DNA from: a virus
Lineage: Duplodnaviria; Caudoviricetes
IMG/VR virus record: IMGVR_UViG_3300037042_000313
Coordinates: 1 to 61,978 of that record
Length of the DNA: 61,978 nucleotides
Strand: one strand, 5' to 3'
The notes under the pieces are model-generated. The model had not been told where the DNA came from. It made no database searches and saw only the letters and a list, made by a program, of their open reading frames with translations. The position numbers and the translations under genes are program-made. Positions 1,543-17,536 of the stretch are shown here, in pieces (positions within the stretch are counted from its first letter, which is position 1; every line of letters starts with the position of its first letter).

Positions 1543-1788
1543 CCAGTTCTCTGTGCGGCGGCTGCGAGGGTGTGTCGGATTGCGCTGTGGCTCTCGACGT
1601 ATTCCGTACAACAATGTTATGGATCGGGACCACTTTCCACCAGTTCTCTGTGCGGCGGCTGCGACGGGGTTTTTTATCGTCCGAGCGGTTCGTAGGACGA
1701 TACCAAGGTTTTTGGCCAAAGTCCATAGGGGAAACCCTAACTTTGTTAGATTTCTTGAATGTCCGCCAGTTCTCTGTGCGGCGGCTGC
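1543..1788. repeat. Three exact copies of 23-bp CCAGTTCTCTGTGCGGCGGCTGC
   Basis: Copies at 1543-1565, 1640-1662, 1766-1788; spacers 74 and 103 bp; region appears non-coding. Confidence 0.9.
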
Positions 1789-1799
1789 TAACAAAGTTA

Positions 1800-2300
1800 T
1801 GAATGTTACGCCTAATGTTACAGAAAAAGTGTATATGTTACGTGACACATTGCGCTAAGTCCTTGATTTTAAAGCAATGTTACGTGTTACGTTTTTTCAG
1901 GGTTTTTTATGAAATCCCACCAAGTACAAAACGGTGAAAAACGCAGCCATGAGCAATTCGTACTACCAAAGTCATTTTGGTGGCCATTCATATATACTCA
2001 TAACATTATAACTTTATAACATTACAAACATTTTTTCTTTTTTCTTCAATCAAATCAAGGACTTAGCGTGTTACGTCTTTTGTAGCCTTTTCACACTCCC
2101 CCCGCAATTTCGTAACATCTTTCGTAACACCACCCTGCCCCGAAACGTAACACTGCCCAACCCGCACCAGATGCCCGCCAACACCTCACCAATGCCCGAA
2201 ACGTAACATTACCCCAAACACACCAAAAGCCCGAAACGTAACATTACCAAAACCAGACCAAAAACCCACAACACCCCCGAAACGTAACATTGTTAGCCCC
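1800..2300. promoter_or_regulatory. Putative replication origin (iteron-like repeats, inverted repeat, AT-rich core)
   Basis: TGTTAC(G) x6 at 1804-2075, then CGTAACA x6 at 2111-2289; CCCGAAACGTAACA x4 (2139, 2195, 2230, 2276); 17-bp inverted repeat 1853-1869 / 2052-2068 around an AT-rich stretch; no ORF. Confidence 0.55.
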
Positions 2301-2335
2301 CACCAGATGCACAACCTACTCGCACCCCAATTTGC

Positions 2336-2364
2336 TTGACATTAGACCCTTTTTGTGTTATACT
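2336..2364 (+). promoter_or_regulatory. Sigma70-type early promoter
   Basis: TTGACA-17 bp-TATACT. Confidence 0.85.
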
Positions 2365-2460
2365 ATAGGTTGAGTGGGAATTTAGTTGTTAGTTAGGTTT
2401 GGAATCCGCCCGACCTAACTTTGTTAGAAGTTAGACCGTTCAACCATTAGGAGTAACGAA

Positions 2461-2622
2461 ATGATCCTGAGAACCAGCAACCCGTTCGTCCGTGCCGTGT
2501 GCGCAATCACCCGCTCCCTGCCCTACGCAGTCCGCTCACGCTTGCCCCTGTACATCTACCACGTGCGCGTCGGCAACGACTGCACTAACTTTGTTAGGGT
2601 TTCTTTTACGTTTACTGTTTGA
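2461..2622 (+). CDS. Small hypothetical protein (53 aa, not in ORF track)
   Basis: AGGAG SD then ATG; MILRTSNPFVRAV...FTFTV; first gene after the promoter. Confidence 0.6.
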   Translation: MILRTSNPFVRAVCAITRSLPYAVRSRLPLYIYHVRVGNDCTNFVRVSFTFTV

Positions 2623-2870
2623 GGGGGGATGAGATGAACAACAGAGTGAACAACCGCAACCTTGATTGGTCTGAGTGCCCCCTATGCGGGGATGATGTGA
2701 ACTCCGAGCGCATCGGGCTCGGCTACGTATTGTGCATGTGCTGCGGTGAGGAAGCAGCCCAACAAGTCAAGCACACCATCGTGCCCATGAACAAGTCGAA
2801 CTACATCTACGTCAGTCCCGGTAACCTAACATTGTTAGCCCAACTCAACCCCAAGAGGACCACAGCATGA
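2619..2870 (+). CDS. C4 zinc-finger protein (DksA/TraR-finger-like spacing)
   Basis: CPLCG...ERIGLGYVLCMCC; true start probably ATG 2634. Confidence 0.6.
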   Translation: MRGDEMNNRVNNRNLDWSECPLCGDDVNSERIGLGYVLCMCCGEEAAQQVKHTIVPMNKSNYIYVSPGNLTLLAQLNPKRTTA

Positions 2871-3115
2871 ACATCGACCGCAACACACTAGAAGCGCAAT
2901 ACATAGAACGCATCCTAGAAAGCATGGACTTGGATACGTTGGTAATGATTGCTCAAGAACACCTAGAGGGTGAGTTCAAGAAGTTCTCAGACGAAGAACT
3001 GCACAGCGAAGTAGCCATGCACTACCCCGACTTGCTCGACTTAGAGGAAACCGACTGGAAACAAGAGGGCCGTGACCTTGAGGACTTCGACATGCACACG
3101 AAGGAAGCACGATGA
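2867..3115 (+). CDS. Acidic hypothetical protein (82 aa)
   Basis: ATGA overlap with upstream gene; very D/E-rich. Confidence 0.7.
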   Translation: MNIDRNTLEAQYIERILESMDLDTLVMIAQEHLEGEFKKFSDEELHSEVAMHYPDLLDLEETDWKQEGRDLEDFDMHTKEAR

Positions 3116-3213
3116 AAACGAGACGGGAAATACTAGCCCTAGCCTTTTTGTACTGCGTATACGCCGCTGCCCTTGTGGTGACTGCGTTGGATGTCTTTTA
3201 CTGGAGGCCATGA
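3112..3213 (+). CDS. Small membrane peptide (33 aa)
   Basis: MKTRREILALAFLYCVYAAALVVTALDVFYWRP; ATGA overlap; one hydrophobic helix. Confidence 0.55.
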   Translation: MKTRREILALAFLYCVYAAALVVTALDVFYWRP

Positions 3214-3250
3214 TGAGCAGCAAAGAGCACAACGAAGGGAGAGCCTAACA

Positions 3251-3367
3251 ATGTTAGTTTTCTACAGTGGGAAACTGATCGTCATCGAGACGAACCTAGA
3301 GTGGGCACTGCCCTACTGGAAACGCCGCAAGGCATCAGACAAACGCATTACTTTCATCATCAACTAA
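3251..3367 (+). CDS. Small hypothetical protein (38 aa)
   Basis: GGGAGA SD; ATG lies inside palindrome 3245-3257; MLVFYSGKLIVIETNLEWALPYW... Confidence 0.5.
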   Translation: MLVFYSGKLIVIETNLEWALPYWKRRKASDKRITFIIN

Positions 3368-3393
3368 CCAAGCCAACACCAAGGAGAAATGAC

Positions 3394-4593
3394 ATGTGGG
3401 GATCAAACAGCACCATGAACAACCTGCCGCACGTACGCGAGTACGACCACGCACTCAAGATACTCAACACCACCAAGCCAATCAGCGGCAGTGGGCACAA
3501 CGCTGGGCGCGTACCTCTCGGTGCGCGTAAAGATGTGAGTAAGTATTGGGCTAGGTCGGGCTCGGTGGATGCCACCGATGTGGAGTTCATCCTCTACCAA
3601 ACGCCCATCATCACGTACAAAGCAGACGGGCGCATCATCGTCAGCATGGGCTCATGGAACAGCATCACCACCCGTGAGTTCATCAACACCATCTTGCGCG
3701 TCTCATGCTATGCCAAGAGTGGGAAGCCTGTGATTGAGTTGCACGGGCCAAGGAATGAAGACGGGACAGGCAACCCCAAGTCAATCATCCCTCATGCGGG
3801 AATCCTCCTGCGGTGCAACAAAACGCCCGACTCAAACTCCCAACCAGTTCTCACCTTCGACACCGAGGCCAAGCCCGTCATCATGGGCTACAGCATCAAC
3901 CGAGCCAAGGCTAACAATGTTAGAAAACGCTATTCGGAGTTCCGCAAGTACCTCAAGACAACAATATCCCTGCGCAAAACGCAGGTAGAGATAACGCACA
4001 CTTGGTACCACGGGATGAGACAGGCTGAGACCGAACCGACCTTCTACGATGCCATCGAGTACACCATCGGCGAGGTTGCCGACGGGCTCGGGATTGTCAA
4101 AGCCACATCAGAAAACGGGCTCAACCGCAGCCGAGTGAATCAGGCCGAGTGGAACCAACTGCACCGCAAGCCAGTGGGTCACATCCGTCCGCAGGGGTTC
4201 AACACGTACGAGCAATGGATTGCTCAGTACACAGCCAAGTGCGAGGAGTTCTTTGGTCTGGTCAAGAACAACCAGCCGGAGGAGACAAAGCACGCCAACT
4301 TCTACAAGGCGTTTTTAGTTCTGCTATGTATGCACGCACCGAACAGCCGACAGGCGCACTCAATCGAAGACCCATCTAAAGTGGTGAGCACTACGCCGAG
4401 GGACATAGAGACGAACTTTGAAGGAGCGTTCCGCAGGTACTACGCTGCTGATATCTTGGAAGAAGTAGCCATGAAGGGCGGCGTGCCACCGAACAAGACC
4501 TACATCGAGTGGATGTGGATGCACAACAGAGAAACCGTTAGCCAAGCAGAGCAGCGAGAGGTGGAAGACAAGAAGACTTCTATCCGCCTTTGA
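3394..4593 (+). CDS. Hypothetical early protein (~399 aa)
   Basis: Long ORF 3301..4593; AAGGAG SD before ATG 3394; no family recognised. Confidence 0.8.
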   Translation: MWGSNSTMNNLPHVREYDHALKILNTTKPISGSGHNAGRVPLGARKDVSKYWARSGSVDATDVEFILYQTPIITYKADGRIIVSMGSWNSITTREFINTILRVSCYAKSGKPVIELHGPRNEDGTGNPKSIIPHAGILLRCNKTPDSNSQPVLTFDTEAKPVIMGYSINRAKANNVRKRYSEFRKYLKTTISLRKTQVEITHTWYHGMRQAETEPTFYDAIEYTIGEVADGLGIVKATSENGLNRSRVNQAEWNQLHRKPVGHIRPQGFNTYEQWIAQYTAKCEEFFGLVKNNQPEETKHANFYKAFLVLLCMHAPNSRQAHSIEDPSKVVSTTPRDIETNFEGAFRRYYAADILEEVAMKGGVPPNKTYIEWMWMHNRETVSQAEQREVEDKKTSIRL

Positions 4594-4630
4594 GCAGGGG
4601 AAACACCAACCAACACGTAACCCGATTTGC

Positions 4631-4659
4631 TTGACATTAGAGGCTATTTGTGGTATACT
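4631..4659 (+). promoter_or_regulatory. Sigma70-type early promoter (paralogue of 2336-2364)
   Basis: TTGACA-17 bp-TATACT with near-identical flanks and leader. Confidence 0.85.
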
Positions 4660-4750
4660 ATAGGTTAAGTGGGAATTTGTTTGTTAGTAGTTAGGTTTGG
4701 ATGGGCCAGACCTAACATTGTTAGTTTGTTAGTTCATTAGGAGTTTAGAC

Positions 4751-5815
4751 ATGGCTGAGATCAACTTTGGTAAGACCGTTACCCTGAAGCAAGCGGCAAC
4801 GCTTATCCGTACGAACCCAGAGACACGCTTCCTCTTGCAAGGCGAGCCGGGCATCGGCAAGAGTTCTTTGCTTGAGTCCATTGCAGGTGGGCTGGGTTAC
4901 GAACATGCGTATATCGACGTACCCAATATGGACCTCGGTGACATTGCAATGCCCGTGATCGATCACGATAACAAAGTTACACGCTACTACCCGAACGCTC
5001 GGTTCGGTGTGCATACGGGCAAGCCGTTGGTCATCATGCTCGACGAGTTCTCGAAGGGCGCGGACCCGGTGAAGAACATGCTCCACCCGATGTTGGAGAA
5101 GGCGAACCCCCGACTCGGCGACATTCCACTGGCTAAGGACACCATCGTTTTCCTCACGGGCAACCTGTCCACCGACGGCGTAGGCGACAGCCTCAAAGCG
5201 CACTCGCGTAACCGACTCGTTGCCGTTACTGTGTCCAAGCCCAGCGCAGAGGAGTGGATCGAGTGGGCGATCAACAAGGGCATCGAGGCCGAGGTCATCG
5301 CATGGGTGAATCAGTACCCCCACGCCCTCGCTTCCTATACCGACGCTGCCCAAGGGGATAACCCCTACATCTACCACCCACGCAAAACGCAGCACGGGTT
5401 TGTCACCCCACGTAGCCTTGAGACTGCATCTAACATTGTTAGAACACGCAAGTTGAACGACACCGACAGCGTTATCGCTGCTCTGTCAGGTGCAGTGGGT
5501 GAGAGTGCAGCCCGTGATATGCAAGCGTACATCGAGTTCAGCGATCAACTCCCAACGTGGGAGGCGACGATCAAGAACCCAGAGACAACGCCTGTGCCTA
5601 CGTCACCAGCAGCATGTGCCATCGTGTGCTTTGGTGCTATCGCACGTATGACCAAGGAGACGATCACCCCGTTCATGAAGTACCTCGAACGCTTCGATCC
5701 AGAGTGGCAAGCCGTGTTCGCAATCAACATCGCCAAGGCACCAACCAAGCAATCAATCGCGTTCAGCAGCAAGGCGTTCGCCGACTGGGTTGCAAAGAAC
5801 CAAGACTTGCTGTGA
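4751..5815 (+). CDS. MoxR-like AAA+ ATPase
   Basis: Walker A GEPGIGKS, Walker B IMLDE, TPRS motif; adjacent to a VWA gene. Confidence 0.88.
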   Translation: MAEINFGKTVTLKQAATLIRTNPETRFLLQGEPGIGKSSLLESIAGGLGYEHAYIDVPNMDLGDIAMPVIDHDNKVTRYYPNARFGVHTGKPLVIMLDEFSKGADPVKNMLHPMLEKANPRLGDIPLAKDTIVFLTGNLSTDGVGDSLKAHSRNRLVAVTVSKPSAEEWIEWAINKGIEAEVIAWVNQYPHALASYTDAAQGDNPYIYHPRKTQHGFVTPRSLETASNIVRTRKLNDTDSVIAALSGAVGESAARDMQAYIEFSDQLPTWEATIKNPETTPVPTSPAACAIVCFGAIARMTKETITPFMKYLERFDPEWQAVFAINIAKAPTKQSIAFSSKAFADWVAKNQDLL

Positions 5816-6027
5816 GGGTCAAGCAATCAAGTCACTACCCCGATGACACGGGGACCCACACCTACAAAGTGTGGGTTGAACCAAACTTTCCGGGCGGGGA
5901 TAAACCCTCCACGTTCCGGGTGTACCGTGGCCTTGGGTACTGGAACCGCAAGCAGTTGCTAGCGGAATTCCCGTACCACGAAGAACACATCGCCATTGCA
6001 ATGGCTAAGTTAGCAACACAGGAGTGA
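5812..6027 (+). CDS. Hypothetical protein (~71 aa)
   Basis: 3' part of ORF 5557..6027; GTG overlaps the ATPase stop and the ORF fills the gap. Confidence 0.5.
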   Translation: MRVKQSSHYPDDTGTHTYKVWVEPNFPGGDKPSTFRVYRGLGYWNRKQLLAEFPYHEEHIAIAMAKLATQE

Positions 6028-6032
6028 TAACA

Positions 6033-7283
6033 ATGTTAGAAGAACGCAAACTGCAGAAGGCGAAGATCAGCCTGATGCGCAATCCGAAGTTCGCCCTGTG
6101 GTCGGGCATCCTGATGGTCGGCAAGACCAGCGTGGTGGACAACATCCCAACCGCTTGCACCAACGGACGGGACGAGCAGTACGGTCGGGCTTTCGTTAAG
6201 TCCCTGCCCGACAAAGAACTCTCGTTCCTCGTACTGCACGAGGCATTGCACAAAGCACTGCGGCACCTGACCACGTGGCGGAAGTTGCACGATGAGAACG
6301 CGAAGCTCGCCAATGCAGCGTGTGACTACGTGATTAACCTGATGCTGCTCGACCTCGATCCGTCAGGCGAAGCGATCACCATGCCCAAGATCAAGGACGG
6401 TCCCGAGAAGGGCAAGCCGATGGGCTTGATCGACGCTCGGTTCAAGGGGATGAACGCCAAGCAAGTGTTCGACCTGCTCAAGCAGGAGCAGCAAGAGGGT
6501 GAGGACGGGATTCCCGATGACGGAAACGGGAACCCCGTTAACGGGACTGGGCAGGTGCCGAAGGATGGTGCGGGGTTGGACGACCACGACTGGGACGGTG
6601 CCGCCGAGATGACCGAGGGTGAGCGCAAGCAACTCGAACGGGAAGTGGATCAGGCTATCCGTCAAGGGATCATGGCTGAGAAGAAGGCAGGTAGGGGTGC
6701 GGGCAACCTGAGCCGCGAGTTGCAGGACTTGCTCGAACCCAAGGTGAATTGGCGCGAGGCATTGCGTGAGTTCGTTAAGTCTACGTGCCACGCTAAGGAT
6801 GCATCGTCATGGCGTCGGGTCAATCGCCGCTTCCTCAGCACGGGTGTGTATATGCCGAGCATGATCGGCGAGAAGGTCGGGCACTTGGTCATCGCTGTGG
6901 ATACGTCAGGCTCGGTTGGTGAGAAGGAGTTGGCCGAGTTCCTGTCCGAGGTCAAGGGTGTTGCCGAGGAGGTCAACCCCGACAAGGTGGACTTGATCTA
7001 TTGGGATTCACGAGTTGCAGCGCACGAGGAGTACGAGGGAGGTGGGGATGTTTCTAACATTGTTAGCTCGACCAAGCCCAAGGGCGGTGGCGGTACATCG
7101 CCGAGTTGCATCTCTGAGTTCTTGGCTAACAAGAAGATTACTCCCGAGTGCGTCATCGTCCTCACCGACGGCTACGTGGGTTCAGATTGGGGTCATGGAT
7201 GGACGGCTCCGGTACTCTGGGCCATCGTGGGTGGGAATACTGTTGTCGCGCCGAATGGCAAGACGGTTCATGTTGGAAGTTAA
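6033..7283 (+). CDS. Metallopeptidase (HExxH) + VWA-domain protein (DUF2201-like)
   Basis: LHEALH, NAACDYVIN, MIDAS DTSGS, GGGGT, LTDG; ATG 6033 lies inside a palindrome. Confidence 0.88.
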   Translation: MLEERKLQKAKISLMRNPKFALWSGILMVGKTSVVDNIPTACTNGRDEQYGRAFVKSLPDKELSFLVLHEALHKALRHLTTWRKLHDENAKLANAACDYVINLMLLDLDPSGEAITMPKIKDGPEKGKPMGLIDARFKGMNAKQVFDLLKQEQQEGEDGIPDDGNGNPVNGTGQVPKDGAGLDDHDWDGAAEMTEGERKQLEREVDQAIRQGIMAEKKAGRGAGNLSRELQDLLEPKVNWREALREFVKSTCHAKDASSWRRVNRRFLSTGVYMPSMIGEKVGHLVIAVDTSGSVGEKELAEFLSEVKGVAEEVNPDKVDLIYWDSRVAAHEEYEGGGDVSNIVSSTKPKGGGGTSPSCISEFLANKKITPECVIVLTDGYVGSDWGHGWTAPVLWAIVGGNTVVAPNGKTVHVGS

Positions 7284-7293
7284 GGAGAACGAA

Positions 7294-7515
7294 ATGGTTG
7301 TACTTTCATTTAACTACGGGGAGTTTGTTCTCCCTCCCAAGGATGCCATCACCATCATGGAGATGCTGCAGAAGGCAGAGAAGTACGAGACCAAGTACAT
7401 AAGCGGTGGGGATAGCACCCACCACATCTACACGAACAACGATAGTTTCACCGCCAAGGTAATTAGCGATGACATGTATCGCATGGCTAAGTTGGCTGGC
7501 AAGCCAGAGAAGTAA
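7294..7515 (+). CDS. Hypothetical protein (73 aa)
   Basis: TAAGGAG SD before ATG 7294. Confidence 0.7.
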   Translation: MVVLSFNYGEFVLPPKDAITIMEMLQKAEKYETKYISGGDSTHHIYTNNDSFTAKVISDDMYRMAKLAGKPEK

Positions 7516-7638
7516 CACCCGAGATGCACGGTAACACCAACAAAGTTATCGTGCGCCCATAACCCCCGCCAGTTCCCCCCGCCACCGGTCGGACACCGGT
7601 AACAATGTTAGATATAAATCAATCATCAGGAGTTAGTT

Positions 7639-8502
7639 ATGTCTATTAGCGCATCAGCAGTATTAGTTGAACTCAACATCTCAGTGTGGCCCGCAAGCAA
7701 GATCGACCGCGAGACCACTGAGCGTGTCAACTTCGACGCATCAGCAGTGTCGAACGCAAGCCAGACCAAGAAGAACCTGTTCGCAGGTACGGGTCTGCGT
7801 AAGGACATCGAGAAGTTCGCCGCTCGTGTTCGCCTGTACCACAACCTCAACACGCTGCCGTGGGCAGACAAGGGTGAGCGCCTCGCGCCGACCAAGTTGT
7901 TCATCGAGTACAAGGCAGCGATGAATACGTTCGAGTCCCAATTCCACGGTATGTGCAGCAACTTCTTCGTGGAGTATCCGCGTCTGGTTTCGGAAGCACC
8001 GACCAACTTAGGCAAGCTGTTCCGCGCCGACGACTACCCACCAATCGAGGAGGTGCGGGAGAAGTTCGCCTTCCGTAGATCAACGAATCCTCTGGCGGAC
8101 GCTGGAGATTTTCGCTTAGACATACCAGCGCAGGACTTGGCTGAGATTCAGGCGTCGTACGAGGAGAAGTTCAATGAGCGTCTGGCCGAGGCGATGAAGG
8201 CACCGTGGGATCGACTGCACAAGATGCTCACGGGCATCAGCGACAAGCTGACCGATGACACGGCTGAGGATAGCGACGTACCCAAGAAGCGGTATTACGA
8301 CAGCCTCATCACCAACCCGCTTGAGTTGTGCGACTTGTTGACCAAGCTCAACGTGACCAACGACCCCAAGCTGGAAGAGGCGCGTCGGCAGTTGGAACTA
8401 ACAATGTTAGCCACTGACATTGAGCGTATCAAGGAGGATGCAGATACACGCAGCAGCGTGAAGTCCAAGGTCGATGCGATCTTGAGTAAGTTCGAGTGGT
8501 AA
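7639..8502 (+). CDS. Conserved phage protein, DUF3150-like (287 aa)
   Basis: AGGAG SD; helical protein of the type that accompanies phage AAA/VWA pairs; family name from recall. Confidence 0.6.
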   Translation: MSISASAVLVELNISVWPASKIDRETTERVNFDASAVSNASQTKKNLFAGTGLRKDIEKFAARVRLYHNLNTLPWADKGERLAPTKLFIEYKAAMNTFESQFHGMCSNFFVEYPRLVSEAPTNLGKLFRADDYPPIEEVREKFAFRRSTNPLADAGDFRLDIPAQDLAEIQASYEEKFNERLAEAMKAPWDRLHKMLTGISDKLTDDTAEDSDVPKKRYYDSLITNPLELCDLLTKLNVTNDPKLEEARRQLELTMLATDIERIKEDADTRSSVKSKVDAILSKFEW

Positions 8503-8516
8503 TCAGGAGAAACGAA

Positions 8517-9389
8517 ATGGTACTAGGATTTAACAACGCCAATGTTCGCCTAAGCGTGAAGCTCGCCGAGAAAGCCGCTCAACGAGAAGCACAAGAGGAG
8601 AGCCCGTTTGATGTCCCGTCCATGCTCAAGACTGTCATCACTAGGCTAGCGACAGACAAACCGCTGTGGGACTTCATCGCTTTTAGCGTAGTGAATCGCA
8701 CCCAAGTAACCACCTTCTACGTAGAGAAGGATGGCGAGCGGCTGGGTGAGATCGGTTTTGACTGGCACGGCAGGAACTACTGCATCTACGTCAAGAACAA
8801 GCGCATTGCCGATGCTCTATCACGTAGCGACAGGTACAAGACTGCGGACATTGACAAGGCCGTATTAAAAGTCAAGAAAATGTTTGGTGTTATGACTACC
8901 AAAGAGCGCCTAACGGATGCATCCGTGAAGGCGGCTAACGTAACCAACAACGCAGCCAATGCCAAGTGGTCCCAGCTTCGAGATGTTGAAGGCAGGATCA
9001 CACGGGTTGCTAATCAGTACGTCATGGAGGAGGGGTTCCCGGTGTTTTTAGAGTGGCTGAAGGCCCAAGACACCCACAAAACTAGAGATGCTCTGTTAGG
9101 TGTAGATAACAAAGTTAGCCTAAGCATCGAGATGCTAACCATCCAAAAAGTTCGAGATCACTTCAACGAAGGCAAGGCGGTGTTGGTCATCAAAGACGAC
9201 GGAAAATATATTGTCAAAGTGGGTGACAAAGTGGATTTGTATGATGACAATACGCTCCCTCAAGAGTTGTGCGGCAAGTTAGGTATGCTGAAGCTGATAG
9301 AGGCCGAGCAGTTCGTGACTGACACAGGCTGCCGCATCAACGACGAGACGTTCGTTCTTATATTAGAAGAGGTGAAACATGAAGATTGA
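8517..9389 (+). CDS. Hypothetical protein (~290 aa)
   Basis: AGGAG SD before ATG 8517. Confidence 0.8.
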   Translation: MVLGFNNANVRLSVKLAEKAAQREAQEESPFDVPSMLKTVITRLATDKPLWDFIAFSVVNRTQVTTFYVEKDGERLGEIGFDWHGRNYCIYVKNKRIADALSRSDRYKTADIDKAVLKVKKMFGVMTTKERLTDASVKAANVTNNAANAKWSQLRDVEGRITRVANQYVMEEGFPVFLEWLKAQDTHKTRDALLGVDNKVSLSIEMLTIQKVRDHFNEGKAVLVIKDDGKYIVKVGDKVDLYDDNTLPQELCGKLGMLKLIEAEQFVTDTGCRINDETFVLILEEVKHED

Positions 9390-9936: not shown

Positions 9937-10405
9937 TAAAGAAAAGCGCAGCAAGATCGCCGCATATTTGCTAGAGAACCCAACCGCTAGCATCCGAGAG
10001 GCCGCAGCCATTTTCGGCGTGACCTACCAGCAAGCGTACGTAGTTAGCCGCGCTGAGCGGGGGCTTCTGCGTAAGAAGAAAGTGGTAAAGGCCAAGAGCA
10101 AGATGGGGCAGAAACGCCTTGCTACAAAGATTAAGAAACTCACCGACAAGATCGACAGCGAGCCGCAGATTACTGGGGCTGAGCCTGTGTTTATCTCAGA
10201 AGTCGATCTGATTAACCAACCTCCGCACTATACGAAGGGTGGCATCGAGACTATTGACTTCATCGAGGCTAAGGAGTTGAACTACAACTTGGGCAATGTG
10301 GTTAAGTACGTAACCCGTAGCGGGCTCAAGGGTACGCGCATTGAAGACCTCAAGAAGGCCGTGTGGTACTTGGAGCGAGAGATCGACACACTGCTGGGCT
10401 TCTAA
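9929..10405 (+). CDS. HTH + DUF3310 (SaV-like) protein
   Basis: N-terminal HTH-like SIREAAAIFGVTYQ; C-terminal INQPPHYTKGGIETIDFI...GNVVKYVTR...EDLKKAVWYL. Confidence 0.85.
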   Translation: MFDKEKRSKIAAYLLENPTASIREAAAIFGVTYQQAYVVSRAERGLLRKKKVVKAKSKMGQKRLATKIKKLTDKIDSEPQITGAEPVFISEVDLINQPPHYTKGGIETIDFIEAKELNYNLGNVVKYVTRSGLKGTRIEDLKKAVWYLEREIDTLLGF

Positions 10406-10422
10406 CAAAGTTAGGACACTAA

Positions 10423-10653: not shown

Positions 10654-10674
10654 AGTTAGGGTTTTCCTTTCGAG

Positions 10675-10697
10675 AGCCACCTTCGGGTGGCTTTTTT
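10675..10697 (+). terminator. Rho-independent terminator
   Basis: AGCCACC-TTCG-GGTGGCT followed by T run. Confidence 0.9.
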
Positions 10698-10701
10698 ACG
10701 C

Positions 10702-10729
10702 TTGACTTTGTAAAGAGCGGTGATAAAAT
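10702..10729 (+). promoter_or_regulatory. Putative promoter of replication operon
   Basis: TTGACT-16 bp-TAAAAT with extended TGn, directly after the terminator. Confidence 0.65.
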
Positions 10730-10757
10730 CAAGGCTCGAAAACTACTGGAGGATGAG

Positions 10758-11108: not shown

Positions 11109-11388
11109 GGTTAAGGAGCGGATAAAGCATCTGCTCAAAGAGAACAACGTCTACTACGCAATGCCTATGGGTACGGGCTACGGTAACTCAGGCGTCCCCG
11201 ATTTCCTCTGCTGTGTCAACGGTCAGTTCCTCGCTATCGAGGCTAAGGCTGGCAAGAACAAGCCGACTGCGTTGCAAGAGAAGAACATTGCAGACATTAG
11301 GGCTTCTGGGGGTATCGCCCTAGTGGTTAACGAAGACCTGACAGAACTTACAGCGGTTATAGAGAATTATTCGAGGGGGATAATTTGA
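11086..11388 (+). CDS. VRR-NUC domain nuclease / resolvase
   Basis: PE..V...GVPD...F.AIEAK....PTALQ motif. Confidence 0.88.
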   Translation: MASTPERKVKERIKHLLKENNVYYAMPMGTGYGNSGVPDFLCCVNGQFLAIEAKAGKNKPTALQEKNIADIRASGGIALVVNEDLTELTAVIENYSRGII

Positions 11389-13205
11389 GCATCCTGACAA
11401 TCGACTTCGAGACGTACTACTCGCAGATATTCAGCCTAACAAAGTTAACTACAGAGGAGTACATCCGCTCCCCACAGTTTGAAGTTATCGGTGTTTCCGT
11501 ACAGGTAGACGATGGTGAGCCCGTGTGGTTCAGCGGCTCCCCAGAAAAAACCCACCAGTTCCTCCAACAGTTCGACTGGGCCAACTCGATTGCACTAGCC
11601 CACAACGCTATGTTCGACGGGGCTATCCTGAGTTGGGTCTACGGGATTACCCCTAAAGGCTGGCTGGATACGCTGTGCATGGGACGAGCACTGCACGGTA
11701 CGGAAGTAGGTGGAAGTTTGAAGGTTCTGGCTACTCACTACGGGCTAGGCGAGAAGGGTACGGAGATCGGCAACGCTCTCGGGCTTAGGCGTGAGGACTT
11801 TGGCACGGACCAACTGGAACGCTATGGCGAGTACTGCAAGAACGATGTGGCCTTGACTTGGGCGCTGTTCAACGCAATGAACGCCGACTTCCCCGCTATC
11901 GAACTGCGGCTCATCGACCTGACGATCAAGATGTTCACGGAGCCAGTGCTGCATCTTTCGGGGGCGGAACTTCACGCACACCTTATGTCAGTCCGGGCAC
12001 GTAAAGTAGATACCCTCGGTGCGTACGACCAAGATGTACTGATGAGCAACCCCAAGTTCGCCGACGCGCTAACAAAGTTAGGTGTCACCCCGCCGATGAA
12101 GGTTAGCCCTGCGAACGGCAAGCAGACCTATGCCTTCTCTAAGACGGACGAGGGGTTCAAGGAGCTACTTGAGCACGAGAACGTGGAAGTTCAGGCATTG
12201 GTTGCGGCTCGACTCGGTATCAAGTCCACCATCGAGGAGACACGGACCGAGCGGTTTCTTGGTATATCAAAACGTGGGCCACTACCCGTACCCCTGCGGT
12301 ATTACGCTGCTCATACAGGCCGATGGGGTGGCGACGACAAGGTGAACCTTCAGAACCTCCCACGCAACTCCACGCTCAAGAACTGCATCATCCCGCCAGA
12401 GGGTTACGTCATCCTCGACTCTGACTCATCCCAGATCGAAGCGCGTACGCTGGCATGGCTAGCAGGACAAGAAGACTTGGTTGAAGCGTTCGACAAGGGC
12501 GAGGATGTGTACCGCATCATGGCGTCACGCATCTACAACAAGCCAGAAGAAGAAATAACAAAAGGAGAGCGATTTGTTGGTAAGACAACCATCTTGGGTG
12601 CGGGATACGGTATGGGTGCGGCGAAGTTTCAGGCGCAACTCAAGAACTTCGGCGTCGAGGTTGAGTTGGATGAGTGCAAGCGGATCATCGACACGTACCG
12701 TAGCACATACCCAGCAATCCCTAAGCTGTGGAACTCAGCCAACGAGTCCCTCAAAGCGATCCTCAACAACCAGAGTACAACACTAGGCCGAGAGGGTTTG
12801 CTGAACATCGAGGGTACTAACGGTGTTAGGTTGCCGAATGGGTTGCGGCTCAAGTATCCGAACCTACGGCTACGTCAGGACGAGGAGACAGGCAGGAATG
12901 AACTCGTCTACGACACGAAGAAAGGGAAAGCTCTTATCCCGACTCGGCTGTATGGTGGAAAAATGGTGGAGAACGTCTGTCAGGCGTTAGCGCGTATCGT
13001 CATTGGTGAGCAGATGCTTTTGGTCGCCAAGAAGTACCGTGTGGTGATGACCGTGCATGACGCGATTGCTTGCATCGTGCCGAAAGCAGAAGCTGACACT
13101 GCTAAAGAATACATTGAACTGTGTATGCGTTTGCGCCCCAAGTGGGCGCTTGAACTCCCTTTGAACTGTGAGGCTGGATATGGAGAAAGTTACGGTGATT
13201 GTTGA
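11385..13205 (+). CDS. polA: DNA polymerase, family A, with 3'-5' exonuclease
   Basis: Exo I DFET, HNAMFD; HTGRWGG; motif A DSSQIEAR; motif B RFVGKTTILGAGYG; motif C VHD. Confidence 0.95.
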   Translation: MSILTIDFETYYSQIFSLTKLTTEEYIRSPQFEVIGVSVQVDDGEPVWFSGSPEKTHQFLQQFDWANSIALAHNAMFDGAILSWVYGITPKGWLDTLCMGRALHGTEVGGSLKVLATHYGLGEKGTEIGNALGLRREDFGTDQLERYGEYCKNDVALTWALFNAMNADFPAIELRLIDLTIKMFTEPVLHLSGAELHAHLMSVRARKVDTLGAYDQDVLMSNPKFADALTKLGVTPPMKVSPANGKQTYAFSKTDEGFKELLEHENVEVQALVAARLGIKSTIEETRTERFLGISKRGPLPVPLRYYAAHTGRWGGDDKVNLQNLPRNSTLKNCIIPPEGYVILDSDSSQIEARTLAWLAGQEDLVEAFDKGEDVYRIMASRIYNKPEEEITKGERFVGKTTILGAGYGMGAAKFQAQLKNFGVEVELDECKRIIDTYRSTYPAIPKLWNSANESLKAILNNQSTTLGREGLLNIEGTNGVRLPNGLRLKYPNLRLRQDEETGRNELVYDTKKGKALIPTRLYGGKMVENVCQALARIVIGEQMLLVAKKYRVVMTVHDAIACIVPKAEADTAKEYIELCMRLRPKWALELPLNCEAGYGESYGDC

Positions 13206-13371
13206 TTACGCATACCCCTGCATGATGGCAGAGAAAGCATTGAAGCAAGTACATAACGCTATGCTAAACAAAGACTTTGATACTGCTGTTGAGGCTGGTA
13301 TCCAAGCCCTAGTAGAAACTAAGTTAATGGTATTAGCGATCAAAGATATGAAGGATGCCGCAAATGGATGA
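13195..13371 (+). CDS. Small hypothetical protein
   Basis: ORF 13168..13371, likely GTG start 13195; fills the operon gap. Confidence 0.6.
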   Translation: MIVDYAYPCMMAEKALKQVHNAMLNKDFDTAVEAGIQALVETKLMVLAIKDMKDAANG

Positions 13372-13588
13372 GCCGAAGAAGGAAATTTACAACGGTGGCC
13401 CAGCTTTTCCGCTGGACTTGAAGGTTGGTGATGACCACCGCTGGGGACACGGGATGTCTCTGCGGGATTACTTTGCTGCGGCGGCGATGCAGGGGCAGAT
13501 GGTTGGTTATCAAGGTCAGATGTGGGGGCGCATAGCCAAAGAAGCATACGAACAAGCCGACGCAATGATTGAGCAGCGTACAAAATGA
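13364..13588 (+). CDS. Conserved phage protein (GGPAFP...GMSLRDYFA family)
   Basis: Signature widespread in proteobacterial phages; function unknown. Confidence 0.8.
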   Translation: MDEPKKEIYNGGPAFPLDLKVGDDHRWGHGMSLRDYFAAAAMQGQMVGYQGQMWGRIAKEAYEQADAMIEQRTK

Positions 13589-14253
13589 GTAAGCCTATTG
13601 TCTGGTCATTCAGTAGCCTGAAAACATTTCAGCAGTGCCCACGTAAGTATTACCACACCAAGATTGCTAGGGATATTGTTGAGCCAGACACTACGGCAAC
13701 TCTGTACGGTAAGACTGTACATACGGTAGCAGAAGAGTACGTGCGGGATGGCACCCCAATACCTCCCGCATATTCATATATCCAAGCAACCCTAGATGAA
13801 CTCAGGGCGATACCGGGGGAGAAGCTATGCGAAGTGAAGCTGGGGCTGACGAAGGAGTTGGAAAGCTGCGACTTCAGTGCTCCGAATGTGTGGTGGCATG
13901 GGATTGCCGACTTGGTGGTTATCAACCGGGAGAAGGGGATAGCACACTCGGTGGACTACAAGACAAGCAAGAGTGCGAGATATGCGGATGTGAAGCAACT
14001 CGATTTAATCGCTTGTGGTCTATTTGCGAAGTTCCCGGAAATCCAGAGGGTGAAATCGGCTCTTATATTTGTGGTGAGCAAGGAGTTCGTTAAGGCCGAG
14101 CACCACGTAGAGATGATGAAGAAGTACGTTGAGAAACCCGCACAAGATGTTGCACGTATCGAAGCAGCATTAGTTAATGGTGTGTGGAATCCTAGTCAAA
14201 GTCCACTGTGCAGATTCTGCTCAGTTAAATCGTGTGAATATAACCGGAGTTAA
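13585..14253 (+). CDS. PD-(D/E)XK exonuclease (Cas4/RecB-like)
   Basis: WSFSSL..F.QCP, G.ADL, VDYKT, C-terminal CRFC...C. Confidence 0.9.
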   Translation: MSKPIVWSFSSLKTFQQCPRKYYHTKIARDIVEPDTTATLYGKTVHTVAEEYVRDGTPIPPAYSYIQATLDELRAIPGEKLCEVKLGLTKELESCDFSAPNVWWHGIADLVVINREKGIAHSVDYKTSKSARYADVKQLDLIACGLFAKFPEIQRVKSALIFVVSKEFVKAEHHVEMMKKYVEKPAQDVARIEAALVNGVWNPSQSPLCRFCSVKSCEYNRS

Positions 14254-14255
14254 CA

Positions 14256-14372
14256 ATGTTAGATAAAGACGATAAATACAAAGAGTCTTCGTGGTTGGTT
14301 ACGGGGGCAATGTTTGTTGGTTTCGTATTAGTACTCTCTTGGTTGCTGGTATTTGTTGGGGCGGTTACGTGA
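14256..14372 (+). CDS. Small membrane peptide (38 aa)
   Basis: GGAG SD; ATG inside palindrome 14250-14262; single hydrophobic helix. Confidence 0.4.
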   Translation: MLDKDDKYKESSWLVTGAMFVGFVLVLSWLLVFVGAVT

Positions 14373-14394
14373 GTGGGAAACTGGAATAAAAACT

Positions 14395-14625
14395 ATGATT
14401 AAAAGTAAAGCAATTAGTTGGAATAAGGGTAAGCCCTTGGCAGTAGGTTGGTACCGTACTCGCGGTAAAGACTTCGTTTGGACTGGAACCTACCGCTGGT
14501 GGGATGGCGAGCGGTGGTCGTGGGCAGCGTTTGAGCACGAGAGCGCCGAACGAGCAGGTAAGTGGGCCGCTAAGAAAGAGGCCGTGGGTTACTTCAATGT
14601 GCTCCTGTGGAGTGATATGCCGTGA
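14395..14625 (+). CDS. Trp-rich hypothetical protein (~76 aa)
   Basis: P..VGWY...YRWWDGERWS motif. Confidence 0.65.
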   Translation: MIKSKAISWNKGKPLAVGWYRTRGKDFVWTGTYRWWDGERWSWAAFEHESAERAGKWAAKKEAVGYFNVLLWSDMP

Positions 14626-15146
14626 ACATCGAAGGATTACTTGAGCGGGTCTATGAGAAGTGCATCCCCGACGGAGGGTGCATGAACTGGACAGGGGCAA
14701 CGCAGTCAGTCTGCAAAAGCCCGATCATGCGCAAACTGGAGGAAGGTGGTCGTGCTGTATCTCTACGGAGATACATGCTGGAGATCGCACAGGGTAAAAA
14801 AGTATACGCAGCGCGTGTGGCTACCTATATGTGCGGTAACCCTAAGTGCGTGAAGTTGGAACACCTTGGTGAGATCACCCGCAAGACCCTGCAGGAGAGG
14901 AACATATCCCTAATGAACGCAGGGCAGCGGCTAATCAAGGCTAAGCGAGTCAGCGATAAGGCGCGGAAGCGAGCCAAGCTGACCCCCGAACTCGCCCGAG
15001 AGATAGCTGCATTGAACGAGCCCCAGCGAGTGATAGCCCAGAAGTACGGCATCGGCCAGTCAACAGTTAGCCAGATCAAACGTGGCGCTACGTGGCAGGA
15101 CTACACCAACCCATTCTTGCGGCTAGCAGAGGTGCGTGGCCTATGA
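14622..15146 (+). CDS. Degenerate HNH homing-endonuclease-like protein with C-terminal HTH
   Basis: GCMNWTGA...MCGNPKCVKLEHL; AKLT...QRVIAQKYGIGQSTVSQIKRGATW. Confidence 0.75.
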   Translation: MNIEGLLERVYEKCIPDGGCMNWTGATQSVCKSPIMRKLEEGGRAVSLRRYMLEIAQGKKVYAARVATYMCGNPKCVKLEHLGEITRKTLQERNISLMNAGQRLIKAKRVSDKARKRAKLTPELAREIAALNEPQRVIAQKYGIGQSTVSQIKRGATWQDYTNPFLRLAEVRGL

Positions 15147-15337
15147 ACCGCCCCGATAGCCCCTGCATTGCTGTGTGTACAACTTTGTATACCGACAAGT
15201 GTTCTGGCTGCGGGCGTACGTACATGGAAGTCGCGCAGTGGAACAGTTTGACTGACGAAGAACGAGAGGTGGTGTGGCAGCGGATCGACGCCGAGGCTAC
15301 ATCGTGGCGTTACAACCGTTATAAGGATAGGGCATGA
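15143..15337 (+). CDS. DUF1289 (Cys-rich, predicted Fe-S) protein
   Basis: SPCIAVC...CSGCGRT..EVAQW..L...ER..VW. Confidence 0.85.
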   Translation: MNRPDSPCIAVCTTLYTDKCSGCGRTYMEVAQWNSLTDEEREVVWQRIDAEATSWRYNRYKDRA

Positions 15338-15510
15338 GTACTACCCCGCCCCCAAAAAAGCCCAGCCTGATCGACAAGTCGCTCAAGACTGAGATGGATC
15401 GCCGGATGGCTAGGGTGCGGGAGTACTTAGTCACTATCGAAGACCTGACACCCTTAGCCAAGTTTGAATATACGATTCTGATTGCTAAGCTAACTGGAGA
15501 GAAGAAATGA
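15334..15510 (+). CDS. Small hypothetical protein (58 aa, not in ORF track)
   Basis: ATGA overlaps at both ends. Confidence 0.55.
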   Translation: MSTTPPPKKPSLIDKSLKTEMDRRMARVREYLVTIEDLTPLAKFEYTILIAKLTGEKK

Positions 15511-15809
15511 GTACCTACGGTGAGATGAAAGCCAAATACAACGAAGTAAACAAACACCAGCAAAACTACACAGATGTAGTCCTACGCTTGTACACCGATA
15601 AGAGCGATCTCTCGATGGACGCAGCAGCAGAGATCGTAAGACTGCGCCAAGCATTACGCTGGCAGGACGACCGAGACGGTAGAATTGGCACACACTCGGA
15701 TAACTGCTATACATATGGCTACCGCCACTACGAGTGTGCCCTCCACAGGATCAAGCATCTGGAGGAAGATCATAGGTTTGCACAGGCGCTAGGCCCGTGC
15801 GGTAAATAA
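15507..15809 (+). CDS. Hypothetical protein (100 aa)
   Basis: In-operon ORF; THSDNC...HYECA motif. Confidence 0.65.
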   Translation: MSTYGEMKAKYNEVNKHQQNYTDVVLRLYTDKSDLSMDAAAEIVRLRQALRWQDDRDGRIGTHSDNCYTYGYRHYECALHRIKHLEEDHRFAQALGPCGK

Positions 15810-15819
15810 CGGAGTCATC

Positions 15820-16095
15820 ATGCCCTACGTCACCAAGCCCCGCCCGTACAAAAAAGAGTACCAACAACAAGTTGCTAGAGGCGAAGGTCCAGCACGAGCC
15901 AAGCGCGAAAGTGCTCGCAACGAAATGGACAAAAAAGGGATTGACCGCAAGGGCAAAGACATAGATCATTCGATCCCCTTGTCAAAGGGTGGGACCAACG
16001 CCCCGAGCAACCTGAAGCTGAAGGCACCGAGCGCAAACCGTTCGTTCAGCCGCAACTCGGACCACACAGTGAAAGTCAACAAGCCGAAAAAATGA
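15820..16095 (+). CDS. Small HNH endonuclease
   Basis: KDIDH..PLSKGG.N..SNL......NRS. Confidence 0.85.
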   Translation: MPYVTKPRPYKKEYQQQVARGEGPARAKRESARNEMDKKGIDRKGKDIDHSIPLSKGGTNAPSNLKLKAPSANRSFSRNSDHTVKVNKPKK

Positions 16096-17480
16096 ACCTA
16101 TCAGAGTATGAGTGGCCCCGTCCGCACGGGTTCACCCCGTTCGAGCATCAGAAGACAACAGCAGAGTTCCTCATCTCCAACCGCAAGGCGTTCTGCTTCA
16201 ACGAGCAGGGCACGGGGAAAACAGCATCAGTGATTTGGTCCGTGGACTATTTGATGCAGCGTGGGTTAGTGAAACGTGTGCTAGTCATATGCCCGCTGTC
16301 GATCATGAAGTCGGCATGGCAGAACGACCTGTTCAAGTTTGCGATCCATCGCTCTGTTGCTGTAGCCTATGGCTCGGCTAAGAAGCGCAAAGAGATCATC
16401 GAGTCTGGCGCTGAGTTCGTCATCATCAACTTCGACGGTGCGGGTATCGTCAAGAAAGAGATCATGGCTGGCGGGTTCGACCTCATCGTGGTAGATGAAG
16501 CGTCGGCATACAAGAACCCACAGACCGAACGCTGGAAAGACCTCCGAGATATCACTAAGGTGGTGAAGGGGTTGTGGATGCTGACAGGTACGCCTGCAGC
16601 CCAGTCTCCTATGGATGCTTACGGATTGGCAAAGCTAATCAATCCAAAGGGTGTCTCTCCATTCTTGGGTCAGTTCCGCGACTCAGTTATGTTCAAGGTA
16701 GGTGAGTTCCGGTACATCCCGCGACCCGAAGCCAAGCACATCGTCCACAAGATACTGCAGCCAGCGATTCGCTTTGAGAAGTCTCAATGCCTTGACCTGC
16801 CTCCGGTTACGCACGTTGACCGAGATGCCCCGCTCACCCCCCAGCAGCTTAAGTACTACCAAATACTGAAGAAGCAGATGCTGATAGAGGCGGATGGGGA
16901 AGAAGTCTCCGCCGTCAATGCTGCGGTAAAGATCAACAAGCTACTACAGATTGCTGGTGGCGCTGTCTACACCGACAACAAAGAGATCATTGAGTTCGAC
17001 GTAAGCAGTCGGCTTAACGTAGTACGGGAAGTCATAGAGGAATCAAGCCACAAGGTTCTGGTCTTCGTCCCGTTCACGCACACAATCGACCTGCTGAAGA
17101 AGCACCTAGACAAACACAACATCACCTCCGAAGTCATCAATGGGTCGGTACCAGTCAATCGCAGGTCCGATATCGTCAAGACTTTCCAAGAAGATGAGAA
17201 CCCCCGAGTCCTCATCATTCAGCCGCAAGCAGCCTCCCACGGGCTAACACTAACAGCAGCGAACACAATCATTTGGTACGCTCCTTGTTCTAGTGTTGAG
17301 ACGTACCTGCAAGCGAACGCACGGATTGACCGCCCCGGTCAGGTCAACAACATGACCATCGTGCACGTGAAGGGTTCCTCCGTCGAGGAAAAGATGTACG
17401 CCCTTCTACGTAACAACGTAGGCAACCACCAGCGCGTGATTGACCTCTACCGCCAAGAAATATCTGAAGAAACCGCTTGA
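16092..17480 (+). CDS. SNF2-family (SF2) helicase
   Basis: EQGTGKT, VVDEAS, LTGTP, HGLTLTAA, QANARIDRPGQ. Confidence 0.92.
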   Translation: MNLSEYEWPRPHGFTPFEHQKTTAEFLISNRKAFCFNEQGTGKTASVIWSVDYLMQRGLVKRVLVICPLSIMKSAWQNDLFKFAIHRSVAVAYGSAKKRKEIIESGAEFVIINFDGAGIVKKEIMAGGFDLIVVDEASAYKNPQTERWKDLRDITKVVKGLWMLTGTPAAQSPMDAYGLAKLINPKGVSPFLGQFRDSVMFKVGEFRYIPRPEAKHIVHKILQPAIRFEKSQCLDLPPVTHVDRDAPLTPQQLKYYQILKKQMLIEADGEEVSAVNAAVKINKLLQIAGGAVYTDNKEIIEFDVSSRLNVVREVIEESSHKVLVFVPFTHTIDLLKKHLDKHNITSEVINGSVPVNRRSDIVKTFQEDENPRVLIIQPQAASHGLTLTAANTIIWYAPCSSVETYLQANARIDRPGQVNNMTIVHVKGSSVEEKMYALLRNNVGNHQRVIDLYRQEISEETA

Positions 17481-17504
17481 CAATGTAAAGCGTCTTGCTA
17501 AGAT
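17477..17504 (+). promoter_or_regulatory. Putative promoter with downstream palindrome
   Basis: TTGACA-16 bp-TAAGAT (extended TGn); palindrome 17514-17526 lies between it and the SD. Confidence 0.7.
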
Positions 17505-17536
17505 AGACCTCCCGTAACAAAGTTAGGAGATCAGAG

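Follow-up and report, generated by a model that had tools for sequence, protein, structure and literature searches.

The question raised by IMGVR_UViG_3300037042_000313, the record of an uncultured tailed virus, is why one short palindrome with the core TAAC-N3-GTTA recurs throughout its early genes, much of the time inside coding sequence, and which protein reads it. The stretch analyzed, referred to here as the window, comprises the 61,978 bases of a complete or near-complete virus record (98% complete by the record's own estimate). Comparison with related genomes supports selection on the DNA sequence of the sites and points to P170, the product of the first early gene, as a candidate binder from an undescribed virus-only family.

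Distribution and conservation of the palindrome

The core TAAC-N3-GTTA occurs 23 times in the window, where 0.71 copies are expected (standard deviation 0.90, largest value 4) and none of 100 dinucleotide shuffles reaches 23. Twenty-two copies lie at 1738-17525, within the early and replication arm (∼0.5-22 kb), in which all genes are on the plus strand; the remaining copy, at 43656, has a CCC centre. The original prediction, made from the letters of the window, had counted 22 arm copies, 21 of them centred on AAA, AAT or their reverse complements, and both counts hold: the centre is AAA/TTT or AAT/ATT in 21 of the 22 and GGT in one (12818). For the rest of the genome it had listed the CCC-centred copy, which we recovered, and two one-mismatch copies of the 11-mer, of which there are in fact five (23760, 25677, 44352, 45919 and 54276). 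These five agree with chance, the expectation for copies with zero or one mismatch being 2.32 in the whole window. With the stricter consensus CTAACANTGTTAG, all seven perfect and all ten one-mismatch copies fall within 1.7-17.6 kb, and the two-mismatch class is at chance level (six copies, four inside the arm and two outside; 2.0 expected).

Twelve of the 22 arm sites lie wholly within called open reading frames (ORFs); 1000 codon-preserving shuffles average 0.42 such sites and never exceed 3. The exhaustive count first proposed as a check yields clear enrichment and a distribution that is not uniform along the genome. The intragenic sites use two reading frames only (seven in one and five in the other), as had been claimed together with their location inside ORFs for more than half of the sites, because the third frame would read TAA in frame. 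At three sites (3246, 10403 and 14251) the TAA of the motif is itself the stop codon of the upstream ORF.

To compare the array across relatives, we gathered related loci via the DUF2201 protein encoded in the arm, retaining the best 80 of 121 confirmed relatives, and analyzed 11 complete genomes, ten motif-bearing ones and the motif-less G008. Among all 4-N3-4 palindromes, TAAC ranks first in 51 of the 80 loci. The 545 sites in these 51 loci have the centre AAT/ATT in 480 cases, AAA/TTT in 38 and another in 27, and the bases flanking the core are C in 488 and G in 477 of the 545. The profile of 452 distinct sites, aCCTAACA-W-TGTTAGGt, extends the palindrome to 17 bp; it revealed no other informative position within 45 bases on either side, and neither a promoter hexamer nor a T-run at a fixed distance. 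The absence of TpA centres follows because the palindrome is longer than its core, with arms of 6-7 bases (CCTAACA-W-TGTTAGG), and the AAA/TTT copies common in the window are one-mismatch variants of this longer palindrome.

In five complete relatives the motif is present in 12-29 copies, against 0-2 copies of a reversed control word. A similarly confined palindrome in relatives had been named as a check, and one-arm confinement was found in every relative examined: each of the ten complete genomes with the motif has its copies gathered in a single stretch of 12-16 kb, with 10-29 sites per arm, and the array begins a few hundred bases at most from the divergent small-terminase gene and thins with distance. 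Variant words also occur. G006 carries 14 copies of a 14-mer, TAACA-NN-TGTTA, and G007 carries 11 alongside 13-mers; the other variant, TGACA-NN-TGTCA, occurs in L078/L082 and the L060/61/63 group and reaches 10 copies in G011. Hybrid TGAC..GTTA sites were absent from the seven loci with 14-mer or TGACA sites. Some relatives have few or no sites. Among these, G008 (the record behind L019) has a single 13-mer; it also has another palindrome, built on GGGTTAACCC, in four or five copies that lie mostly in its early arm (∼7235, 48386, 52140, 54714 and 57374).

Several intragenic sites share alignment columns across genomes with only 65-80% protein identity. This applies to SNIVR in the AAA ATPase (9 of 10 genomes), xNIVS in the DUF2201 protein (9 of 11) and LTMLG in the product of ORF 7639-8502 (8 of 11). 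At the AAA position, TCT AAC ATT GTT AGN is kept in nine P170-bearing genomes while neighbouring codons vary. G008 has the same peptide, ASNIVRT, but recoded as AGC AAT ATC GTA CGC, and L046 is likewise recoded (AGC AAC ATC GTC CGC). In G006, ORF 3301-4593 carries a 14-mer at the same place in another frame, the peptide changing from ANIVR to LTNVR. Codon conservation at synonymous positions and the codon shuffles thus support selection on the DNA sequence itself, synonymous positions included, in agreement with the original prediction.

The variants indicate how the site is read. The strict 13-mer genomes hold 161 perfect sites and 34 single-mismatch variants, 31 of which differ at the outermost base and none of which is of the wobble type. 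Every inner base is thus read and the centre-adjacent bases stay complementary, which fits a symmetric protein on duplex DNA better than a hairpin in RNA or single-stranded DNA. The same data bear on a cis element in mRNA, a hairpin for processing, stability or translational repression of early messages. All sites are in the sense-transcribed arm and several overlap Shine-Dalgarno sequences or start codons (6028, 10403 and 17515), as such an element would require, yet the base conservation is strict, the RNA hairpin is weak (five pairs and a three-base loop) unless flanks extend it, sites also stand upstream of promoters in non-coding DNA (1738, 1789 and 2285), and the window gave no Rfam match; we regard this explanation as very improbable.

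P170, an early gene that co-varies with the array

To find a gene that co-varies with the palindrome, as the original prediction had suggested, all ORFs from the 11 complete genomes and the 80 loci were clustered. P170, the first gene after the small-terminase gene, is the one cluster that every motif-bearing complete genome has (ten of ten) and that G008 alone lacks. Among 26 loci that cover the terminase-to-AAA stretch, and that include the near-duplicates L017/18, L019/20, L050/51 and L056/58, P170 is found in all 19 motif-rich ones; in six motif-poor loci (0-6 sites) an unrelated gene of about the same size, c40, takes its place, and one locus has neither. G008 has two c40 genes. Comparison of the P170 and c40 profiles gave a probability of 0.65% and hence no detectable kinship, and a Pfam search with c40 returned nothing. 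The c40 phages occupy at least three separate places on the DUF2201 tree, beside P170 phages (a quick tree with SH-aLRT support only).

Not only the presence of the motif but also its subtype follows the protein. The P170 tree splits into two deep clades, both fully supported (100%). Clade b goes with arrays of the strict 13-mer CTAACAWTGTTAG in 15 of 16 loci, the exception being the divergent L010; clade a comprises every 14-mer, mixed and TGACA array, together with the AAA-tolerant arrays of the window and L007. This partition is discordant with the backbone, which makes L015, a clade-a locus with 13- and 14-mers, the sister of the clade-b loci L017/18 with 13-mers only, and which places the clade-a window and L007 together with L010 of clade b. 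Both proteins of the TGACA type have NIDK[IM]W where the others have IDVYW or VHVYW. The co-variation of P170 with the motif is a correlation, and on this comparative evidence we regard P170 as the candidate binder.

Other candidates were considered and rejected. The small-terminase cluster is present in all 11 genomes, including G008, and the arm's core proteins of unknown function encoded by ORFs 3301-4593, 7639-8502 and 8496-9389 are also found in motif-less loci. A cluster denoted P101, downstream of the DUF2201 gene, occurs in 34 of 62 motif-positive and 0 of 10 motif-negative loci and is missing from several motif-rich ones.

At least 389 database proteins match the P170 family profile. 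The 120 matches listed all lack a Pfam domain, and the names among them are uninformative with the sole exception of 'acylphosphatase'. In the ESM Atlas P170 falls among virus-only unnamed clusters, with two named leads below threshold, DUF3102 (0.84) and phiC31 repressor c (0.81); a literature search on DUF3102 yielded nothing useful. No homologue was found in the cultured-phage collection (tblastn, E≤0.01). The AlphaFold model, with a mean pLDDT of 78 and a pTM of 0.53, is all-helical but for one short strand.

Promoter-proximal sites and possible modes of action

Of 28 strong sigma-70-like promoters within the arms of the ten genomes, 21 are followed by a site at +0 to +80, against a mean of 2.9 and a maximum of 10 for random placement (2000 trials); G008 has five comparable promoters, none with a downstream site. 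At most promoters the leader site lies at +27 to +72. In the window the sites are at +45, +47 and +4 of the starts predicted for the promoters at 2336, 4631 and 17477, respectively, and a +4 site occurs at one promoter each in G000, G001 and G002. P170 itself is flanked by sites: 21 of 22 relatives have one at 6-173 nt upstream of its start, and 20 of 22 have another at 14-75 nt downstream of its stop; the exceptions to the upstream site are the window and L007, the window having only the two-mismatch site at 376 at the usual distance. The promoter-proximal sites and those upstream of P170 point to operator or roadblock behaviour, and the earlier view that this is not an ordinary operator set is not borne out.

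The reading we favour, at roughly even confidence, is that P170 binds the palindromes as double-stranded DNA and represses or roadblocks early transcription in the manner of stoperators. P170 would be the first product, expressed from a short operon closed by a terminator, and would then probably occupy the CCTAACA-W-TGTTAGG duplex as a symmetric dimer. Acting at the leader site, it would control its own operon; at the +4 site it would block initiation at an early promoter, whereas leader sites at about +30 to +70 would act as roadblocks to elongating RNA polymerase, and so would copies at some 20 further places in the early and replication operons, the intragenic ones among them. The predicted outcome is that the whole early arm is shut off or throttled.

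We infer the binding of P170 to the sites, its dimeric state and its repressive effect from comparative genetics only, and several points weigh against them. The c40-bearing L014 and L027 keep five to six perfect sites in core genes, L010 combines a clade-b protein with AAA-variant sites like those of its backbone relatives, and the co-occurrence of P170 and motif could reflect linkage in one mosaic early module. Twenty-three P170 members gave no Pfam match at E≤10, including to PF25746 (phiC31 repressor c), and profile searches of the PDB gave no sequence match. The model likewise has no fold match: the best Foldseek E value was 1.4, the best VIA Z score was 6.8 over 52 residues of a helical hairpin, and BFVD returned nothing. 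The conserved stretch ...EKKALFxxLKAAKHSNPSTIWARVRKY... (AAKHSNPSTIWARVRKY) looks like a helix-turn-helix followed by a C-terminal helical hairpin in an unaided reading of the alignment, the half-site centres are 8-9 bp apart, which is unusual for helix-turn-helix dimers, and the proteins are near neutral or acidic (pI 5.3-7.8). The promoters, moreover, are consensus matches and not mapped starts, and a site at +30 to +70 would also fit a positive loading site of the nut or ops type.

The lack of a detectable DNA-binding fold in P170, and the perfect sites kept by L014 and L027, would also be expected if the binder were a host factor or another phage protein and P170 were merely linked to the array in the same exchangeable early module. 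That cellular proteins can read this word follows from MtvA, a MazE-like plasmid antitoxin of Pseudomonas aeruginosa. This dimeric regulator binds the 11-bp core TAACATTGTTA in its operator on plasmid pPAD8 and autoregulates its own operon (PMC11826091). The core is identical to ours, and MtvA has a single site with other flanks and a MazE-like fold, unlike the all-helical and unrelated P170; the shared word is probably a coincidence. The 13-mer was not found in the papers searched; 17 of them have one of the 11-mers, and among the ten listed only the MtvA study is relevant. One Dinoroseobacter metagenome-assembled genome (MAG) with four copies of the 15-mer may also be held in favour of another binder. 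Against it stand the presence/absence pattern unique to the P170 cluster, the motif subtype that follows the P170 clade and not the backbone, the occurrence of the small terminase and all other core genes in G008 as well, and the listed 15-mer matches in the genome collection, which are scattered singletons from unrelated taxa. We consider a different binder quite unlikely.

The scan of genome contigs with CCTAACAWTGTTAGG likewise indicated no host, the matches listed being scattered singletons. In the Dinoroseobacter MAG (contigs L189, L152 and L182), the four copies are of CCTAACAATGTTAGG, two of them 111 nt apart in longer hairpins between convergent genes; all other genome matches listed for the 15-mer are single copies. 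The Dinoroseobacter copies may be a REP-like element that shares the word by chance.

Under a positive mode of action for P170, an antitermination or processivity factor comparable to lambda N/nut, Q or RfaH/ops would load at the sites, which would be read as DNA or as a small hairpin in nascent RNA or the non-template strand. The leader positions of +27 to +72, the terminator-like hairpin after the P170 operon and the single transcribed direction of all sites agree with this, as does the pairing of the left site arm with an upstream GTTAGG in the two leaders of the window, which yields an 11-pair hairpin. That hairpin is, however, found only in G000 and G001. The sites show no wobble-type variants, and their centre-adjacent bases stay complementary, which would be needless in a loop; the +4 site overlaps a start site, and most sites are deep within genes, not in leaders. 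N/nut hairpins share the position in early leaders downstream of promoters (21 of 28), though most sites here are elsewhere, and differ in that their pairing is conserved while wobble pairs and sequence drift are tolerated, which is not seen here. Intrinsic terminators and REP palindromes, recognized by a GC-rich stem with a T-run or by an extragenic location, differ too, as our sites have no conserved flanking T-run and more than half of them are intragenic. We judge positive loading unlikely.

The leaders have further features. In both leaders of the window (4690-4716 and 2390-2420) the left site arm ACCTAAC can pair with the upstream GTTAGGT to give a hairpin of 9-11 pairs followed by a T-rich run. 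These alternative hairpins are flanked on both sides by extra GTTAG half-sites and recur in G001, though not in remoter relatives. L014, a c40 phage, otherwise matches L026 at 87% identity; the leader site ahead of its AAA gene has been lost in a clean deletion, and five intragenic sites are intact. L014 also has, at 1038-1620 just downstream of its c40 gene, about nine copies of the repeat AAAAAATAGGCA.., mostly at 19-nt spacing.

Between the P170 operon and the 2336 promoter lies a non-coding hub (1440-2335), with three 34-nt repeats (1540, 1637 and 1763) and half-site iterons, ACGTAACAY in forward orientation at 2112-2284 and ATGTTACG in reverse at 1804-1885; a perfect 17-nt inverted repeat (1853-1869/2052-2068) encloses a 182-nt AT-rich core. 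Judged by its sequence, the hub resembles an origin of replication, or else a point where the site-binding protein nucleates. An architectural role would have the bound array organize, protect, tether or help to internalize the early arm; a replicative variant would make the half-site iterons round the AT-rich core (1.8-2.3 kb) an origin. Confinement to one 12-16 kb arm, a site density that drops away from the P170 end and the many sites away from promoters speak for such a role, and the origin-like features of the hub keep a replication link open. The strong promoter association speaks against it, and the c40 relatives do without the array, which is thus not a core replication or packaging element. 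Scans of the window ORFs also revealed no ParB, MatP or SMC-type protein.

In Escherichia coli, MatP binds matS, a 13-bp palindrome with some 20 copies that define the Ter macrodomain, one domain of the replicon, and are often intragenic. Our 13-mers resemble matS in being palindromic, often intragenic and confined to one domain of the replicon, and the earlier analogy with a macrodomain built on this. They differ in that the sites are tied to promoters and to a putatively autoregulated early gene, on a scale of 16 kb against 800 kb, and in that Pfam and PHROG scans of the 72 window ORFs detected no MatP-like protein (ribbon-helix-helix and coiled coil) or other protein of the macrodomain type. 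Nor did these scans detect a protein with the N-terminal CTPase domain of ParB/KorB, on which spreading systems of the ParB/parS or KorB type depart from ours. The suggestion that the arm is probably first-ejected has no basis in the sequence either. Bases 1-126 recur identically at 61830-61955, followed by 23 unrelated bases at the very end, beside G/C homopolymer runs, and several relatives have a 127-base end overlap of the same kind. The window ends are thus an assembly overlap, which looks like an artefact of circular assembly; the record is classed 'linear', and the physical genome ends are not given by the sequence. All considered, we find an architectural or replicative role improbable.

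Closest to the favoured reading of P170 as a repressor or roadblock are the stoperators of Cluster A mycobacteriophages, bound by the repressors of L5 (gp71), Bxb1 and TipsytheTRex (PMC6550527, PMC9283540). An L5-type repressor binds 20-30 dispersed sites, most of which block elongation (PMC6550527), and the likeness to our array lies in the number of short sites (about 20-30 of 13-14 bp per genome; 22 here, 12 of them in ORFs), in the location of a few at promoters and most in transcribed regions including genes, and in a motif that co-varies with a cognate phage protein and has variant specificities among relatives. Stoperators are asymmetric, follow the direction of transcription and are distributed across both arms of the genome, and their binder is a monomeric two-domain immunity repressor of temperate phages. 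Our sites, in contrast, are perfect palindromes confined to the early arm; their only asymmetry is the central A/T, both forms occurring on the coding strand; P170 is unrelated, and is encoded by the first gene of a lytic early operon in a genome in which we recognized no lysogeny or immunity genes among the window ORFs scanned.

Repressor c of phiC31 binds palindromic conserved inverted repeats (CIRs), and phage P1 has dispersed C1 operators. Both systems resemble ours in having many copies of one operator across the early region and differ in that their proteins are immunity repressors of temperate phages, with no sequence or fold relation to P170 shown.

A bolder version of the reading, which we put forward as doubtful, is that P170 and its array serve apparently lytic phages as an immunity-like system. 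P170, being made before any other protein, would silence any genome with cognate sites, co-infecting relatives included, and its own early arm through titration by about 20 sites per replicating copy, using a fold unrecognized by any search to read a 13-14-bp palindrome with half-sites 8-9 bp apart. If this were true, competition between relatives would explain the 13-mer, 14-mer and TGACA specificity classes, the repeated replacement of P170 by c40, and the wholesale synonymous recoding that erased sites in the c40 genomes G008 and L046.

Genome context and implications

The coordinates of the sites and of the genes around them are given in Table 1. ORFs other than those of the early and replication arm are mostly on the minus strand, and those recognized encode structural, lysis and packaging proteins. 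The Pfam and PHROG scans recognized no integrase, repressor, ParB or RNA polymerase, and Rfam and tRNA scans of the window found nothing. Among cultured phages the closest are only remotely related: Rhizobium phage RHph_TM3_14A, with 36.6% polymerase identity, and Pseudomonas phage KPP25, with ∼36%. A near-identical DNA search with bases 1-20000 against the cultured-phage collection gave no match.

Table 1. Sites, genes and transcription signals of the window, with positions in its own numbering.
Feature	Position	Strand	Remarks
Degenerate site CTAACATTGTTGT	376..388		Two mismatches; 173 nt upstream of P170 start
P170 gene	549..1055	+	168 aa; first early gene; ORF 345-1055 over-extended, conserved part from 549
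Terminator-like hairpin	1410..1431	+	9 pairs and T-run; closes P170 operon
Non-coding hub	1440..2335		Between P170 operon terminator and 2336 promoter
Site CTAACTTTGTTAG	1737..1749		Intergenic
Site CTAACAAAGTTAT	1788..1800		Intergenic
Site GTAACATTGTTAG	2284..2296		∼40 nt upstream of -35 of 2336 promoter
Promoter, sigma-70-like, TTGACA-17-TATACT	2336..2364	+	11/12 matches
Site CTAACTTTGTTAG	2415..2427		Leader, +45 of 2336 promoter
Site	2585..2597		Within ORF 2461-2622, 26 nt before stop
Site	2826..2838		Within ORF 2619-2870, 40 nt before next ATG
Site	3245..3257		TAA is stop of ORF 3072-3248
Site	3911..3923		Within ORF 3301-4593 (ANNVR); position carries site in 8/11 genomes
Promoter, sigma-70-like, TTGACA-17-TATACT	4631..4659	+	11/12 matches
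Site	4712..4724		Leader, +47 of 4631 promoter; 38 nt before AAA-ATPase ATG
AAA ATPase gene	4751-5815	+	
Weak site ATAACAAAGTTAC	4968..4980		Within AAA gene (DNKVT)
Site	5430..5442		Within AAA gene (SNIVR)
DUF2201 metallopeptidase/VWA gene	6024-7283	+	
Site	6027..6039		Over DUF2201 gene start; ATG within motif
Site	7054..7066		Within DUF2201 gene (SNIVS); same position in 9/11 genomes
Site	7599..7611		Intergenic, 39 nt before ATG at 7639
Site	8398..8410		Within ORF 7639-8502 (LTMLA); same position in 8/11 genomes
Site	9106..9118		Within ORF 8496-9389 (DNKVS)
Site	10402..10414		TAA is stop of DUF3310 gene; 20 nt before next ATG
Family-A polymerase (PolA) gene	11385-13205	+	
Site	11436..11448		Within PolA gene (LTKLT)
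Site	12069..12081		Within PolA gene (LTKLG)
Variant site CTAACGGTGTTAG	12817..12829		Within PolA gene
PD-(D/E)XK nuclease gene	13585-14253	+	
Site	14250..14262		TAA is stop of PD-(D/E)XK nuclease gene
SNF2 helicase gene	16092-17480	+	
Promoter, sigma-70-like, TTGACA-16-TAAGAT	17477..17504	+	10/12 matches
Site	17514..17526		+4 of 17477 promoter; overlaps Shine-Dalgarno of ORF 17537; same +4 layout in G001, G002
DUF927 primase-helicase gene	19120-21978	+	
Large terminase gene	59679-61202		Among mostly minus-strand ORFs
Small terminase gene (putative)	61195-61821		Last of packaging genes; divergent from early arm

Three smaller ORFs of the arm may be mentioned. A plus-strand ORF of 73 codons with a good Shine-Dalgarno sequence (7295-7514) lies between the DUF2201 gene and ORF 7639-8502 and overlaps the minus-strand ORF 7306-7518, which the ORF calls had preferred to it. 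Two HNH-type endonuclease ORFs, at 14622-15146 and 15820-16095, are found within the replication arm. The first of them has a C-terminal helix-turn-helix-like tail and no counterpart in ten relatives, and from its sequence is probably a mobile homing gene.

One of the distant cultured phages has an array of its own. RHph_TM3_14A (MN988472.1; L245 and L246) contains 26 copies of GTTACCT-N4-AGGTAAC, against a shuffle mean of 0.03, at 5.8-57.4 kb. As in the window, one dispersed palindrome occurs in many copies at gene ends and some within genes; unlike in the window, the word is different, the spacer longer and the copies are spread across the early as well as the late regions. An hmmsearch of this phage at E≤10 gave no homologue of P170 or c40. 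KPP25 showed no enriched palindrome in the 44,114 of its 64,113 bases examined. In this respect the broader lineage is mixed.

Dispersed operator arrays are a known kind of system; what is new here is the protein family and the unusual embedding of the sites in coding sequence. The small protein and its 13-mer constitute a testable cis/trans pair for early-gene control in a large group of uncultured aquatic and sediment phages, in which the neighbouring DUF2201 gene is present on at least 121 related contigs and at least 389 proteins match P170, the matches listed being without annotation or function. The array is a case of a regulatory word forced into conserved coding positions, where it is held by synonymous constraint, moved between frames or erased with the loss of its partner gene. 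If P170 binds the site, it would represent a new DNA-binding family, with natural specificity variants from which its recognition code could be mapped. The same logic may apply to the palindrome array of RHph_TM3_14A, a possible laboratory model.

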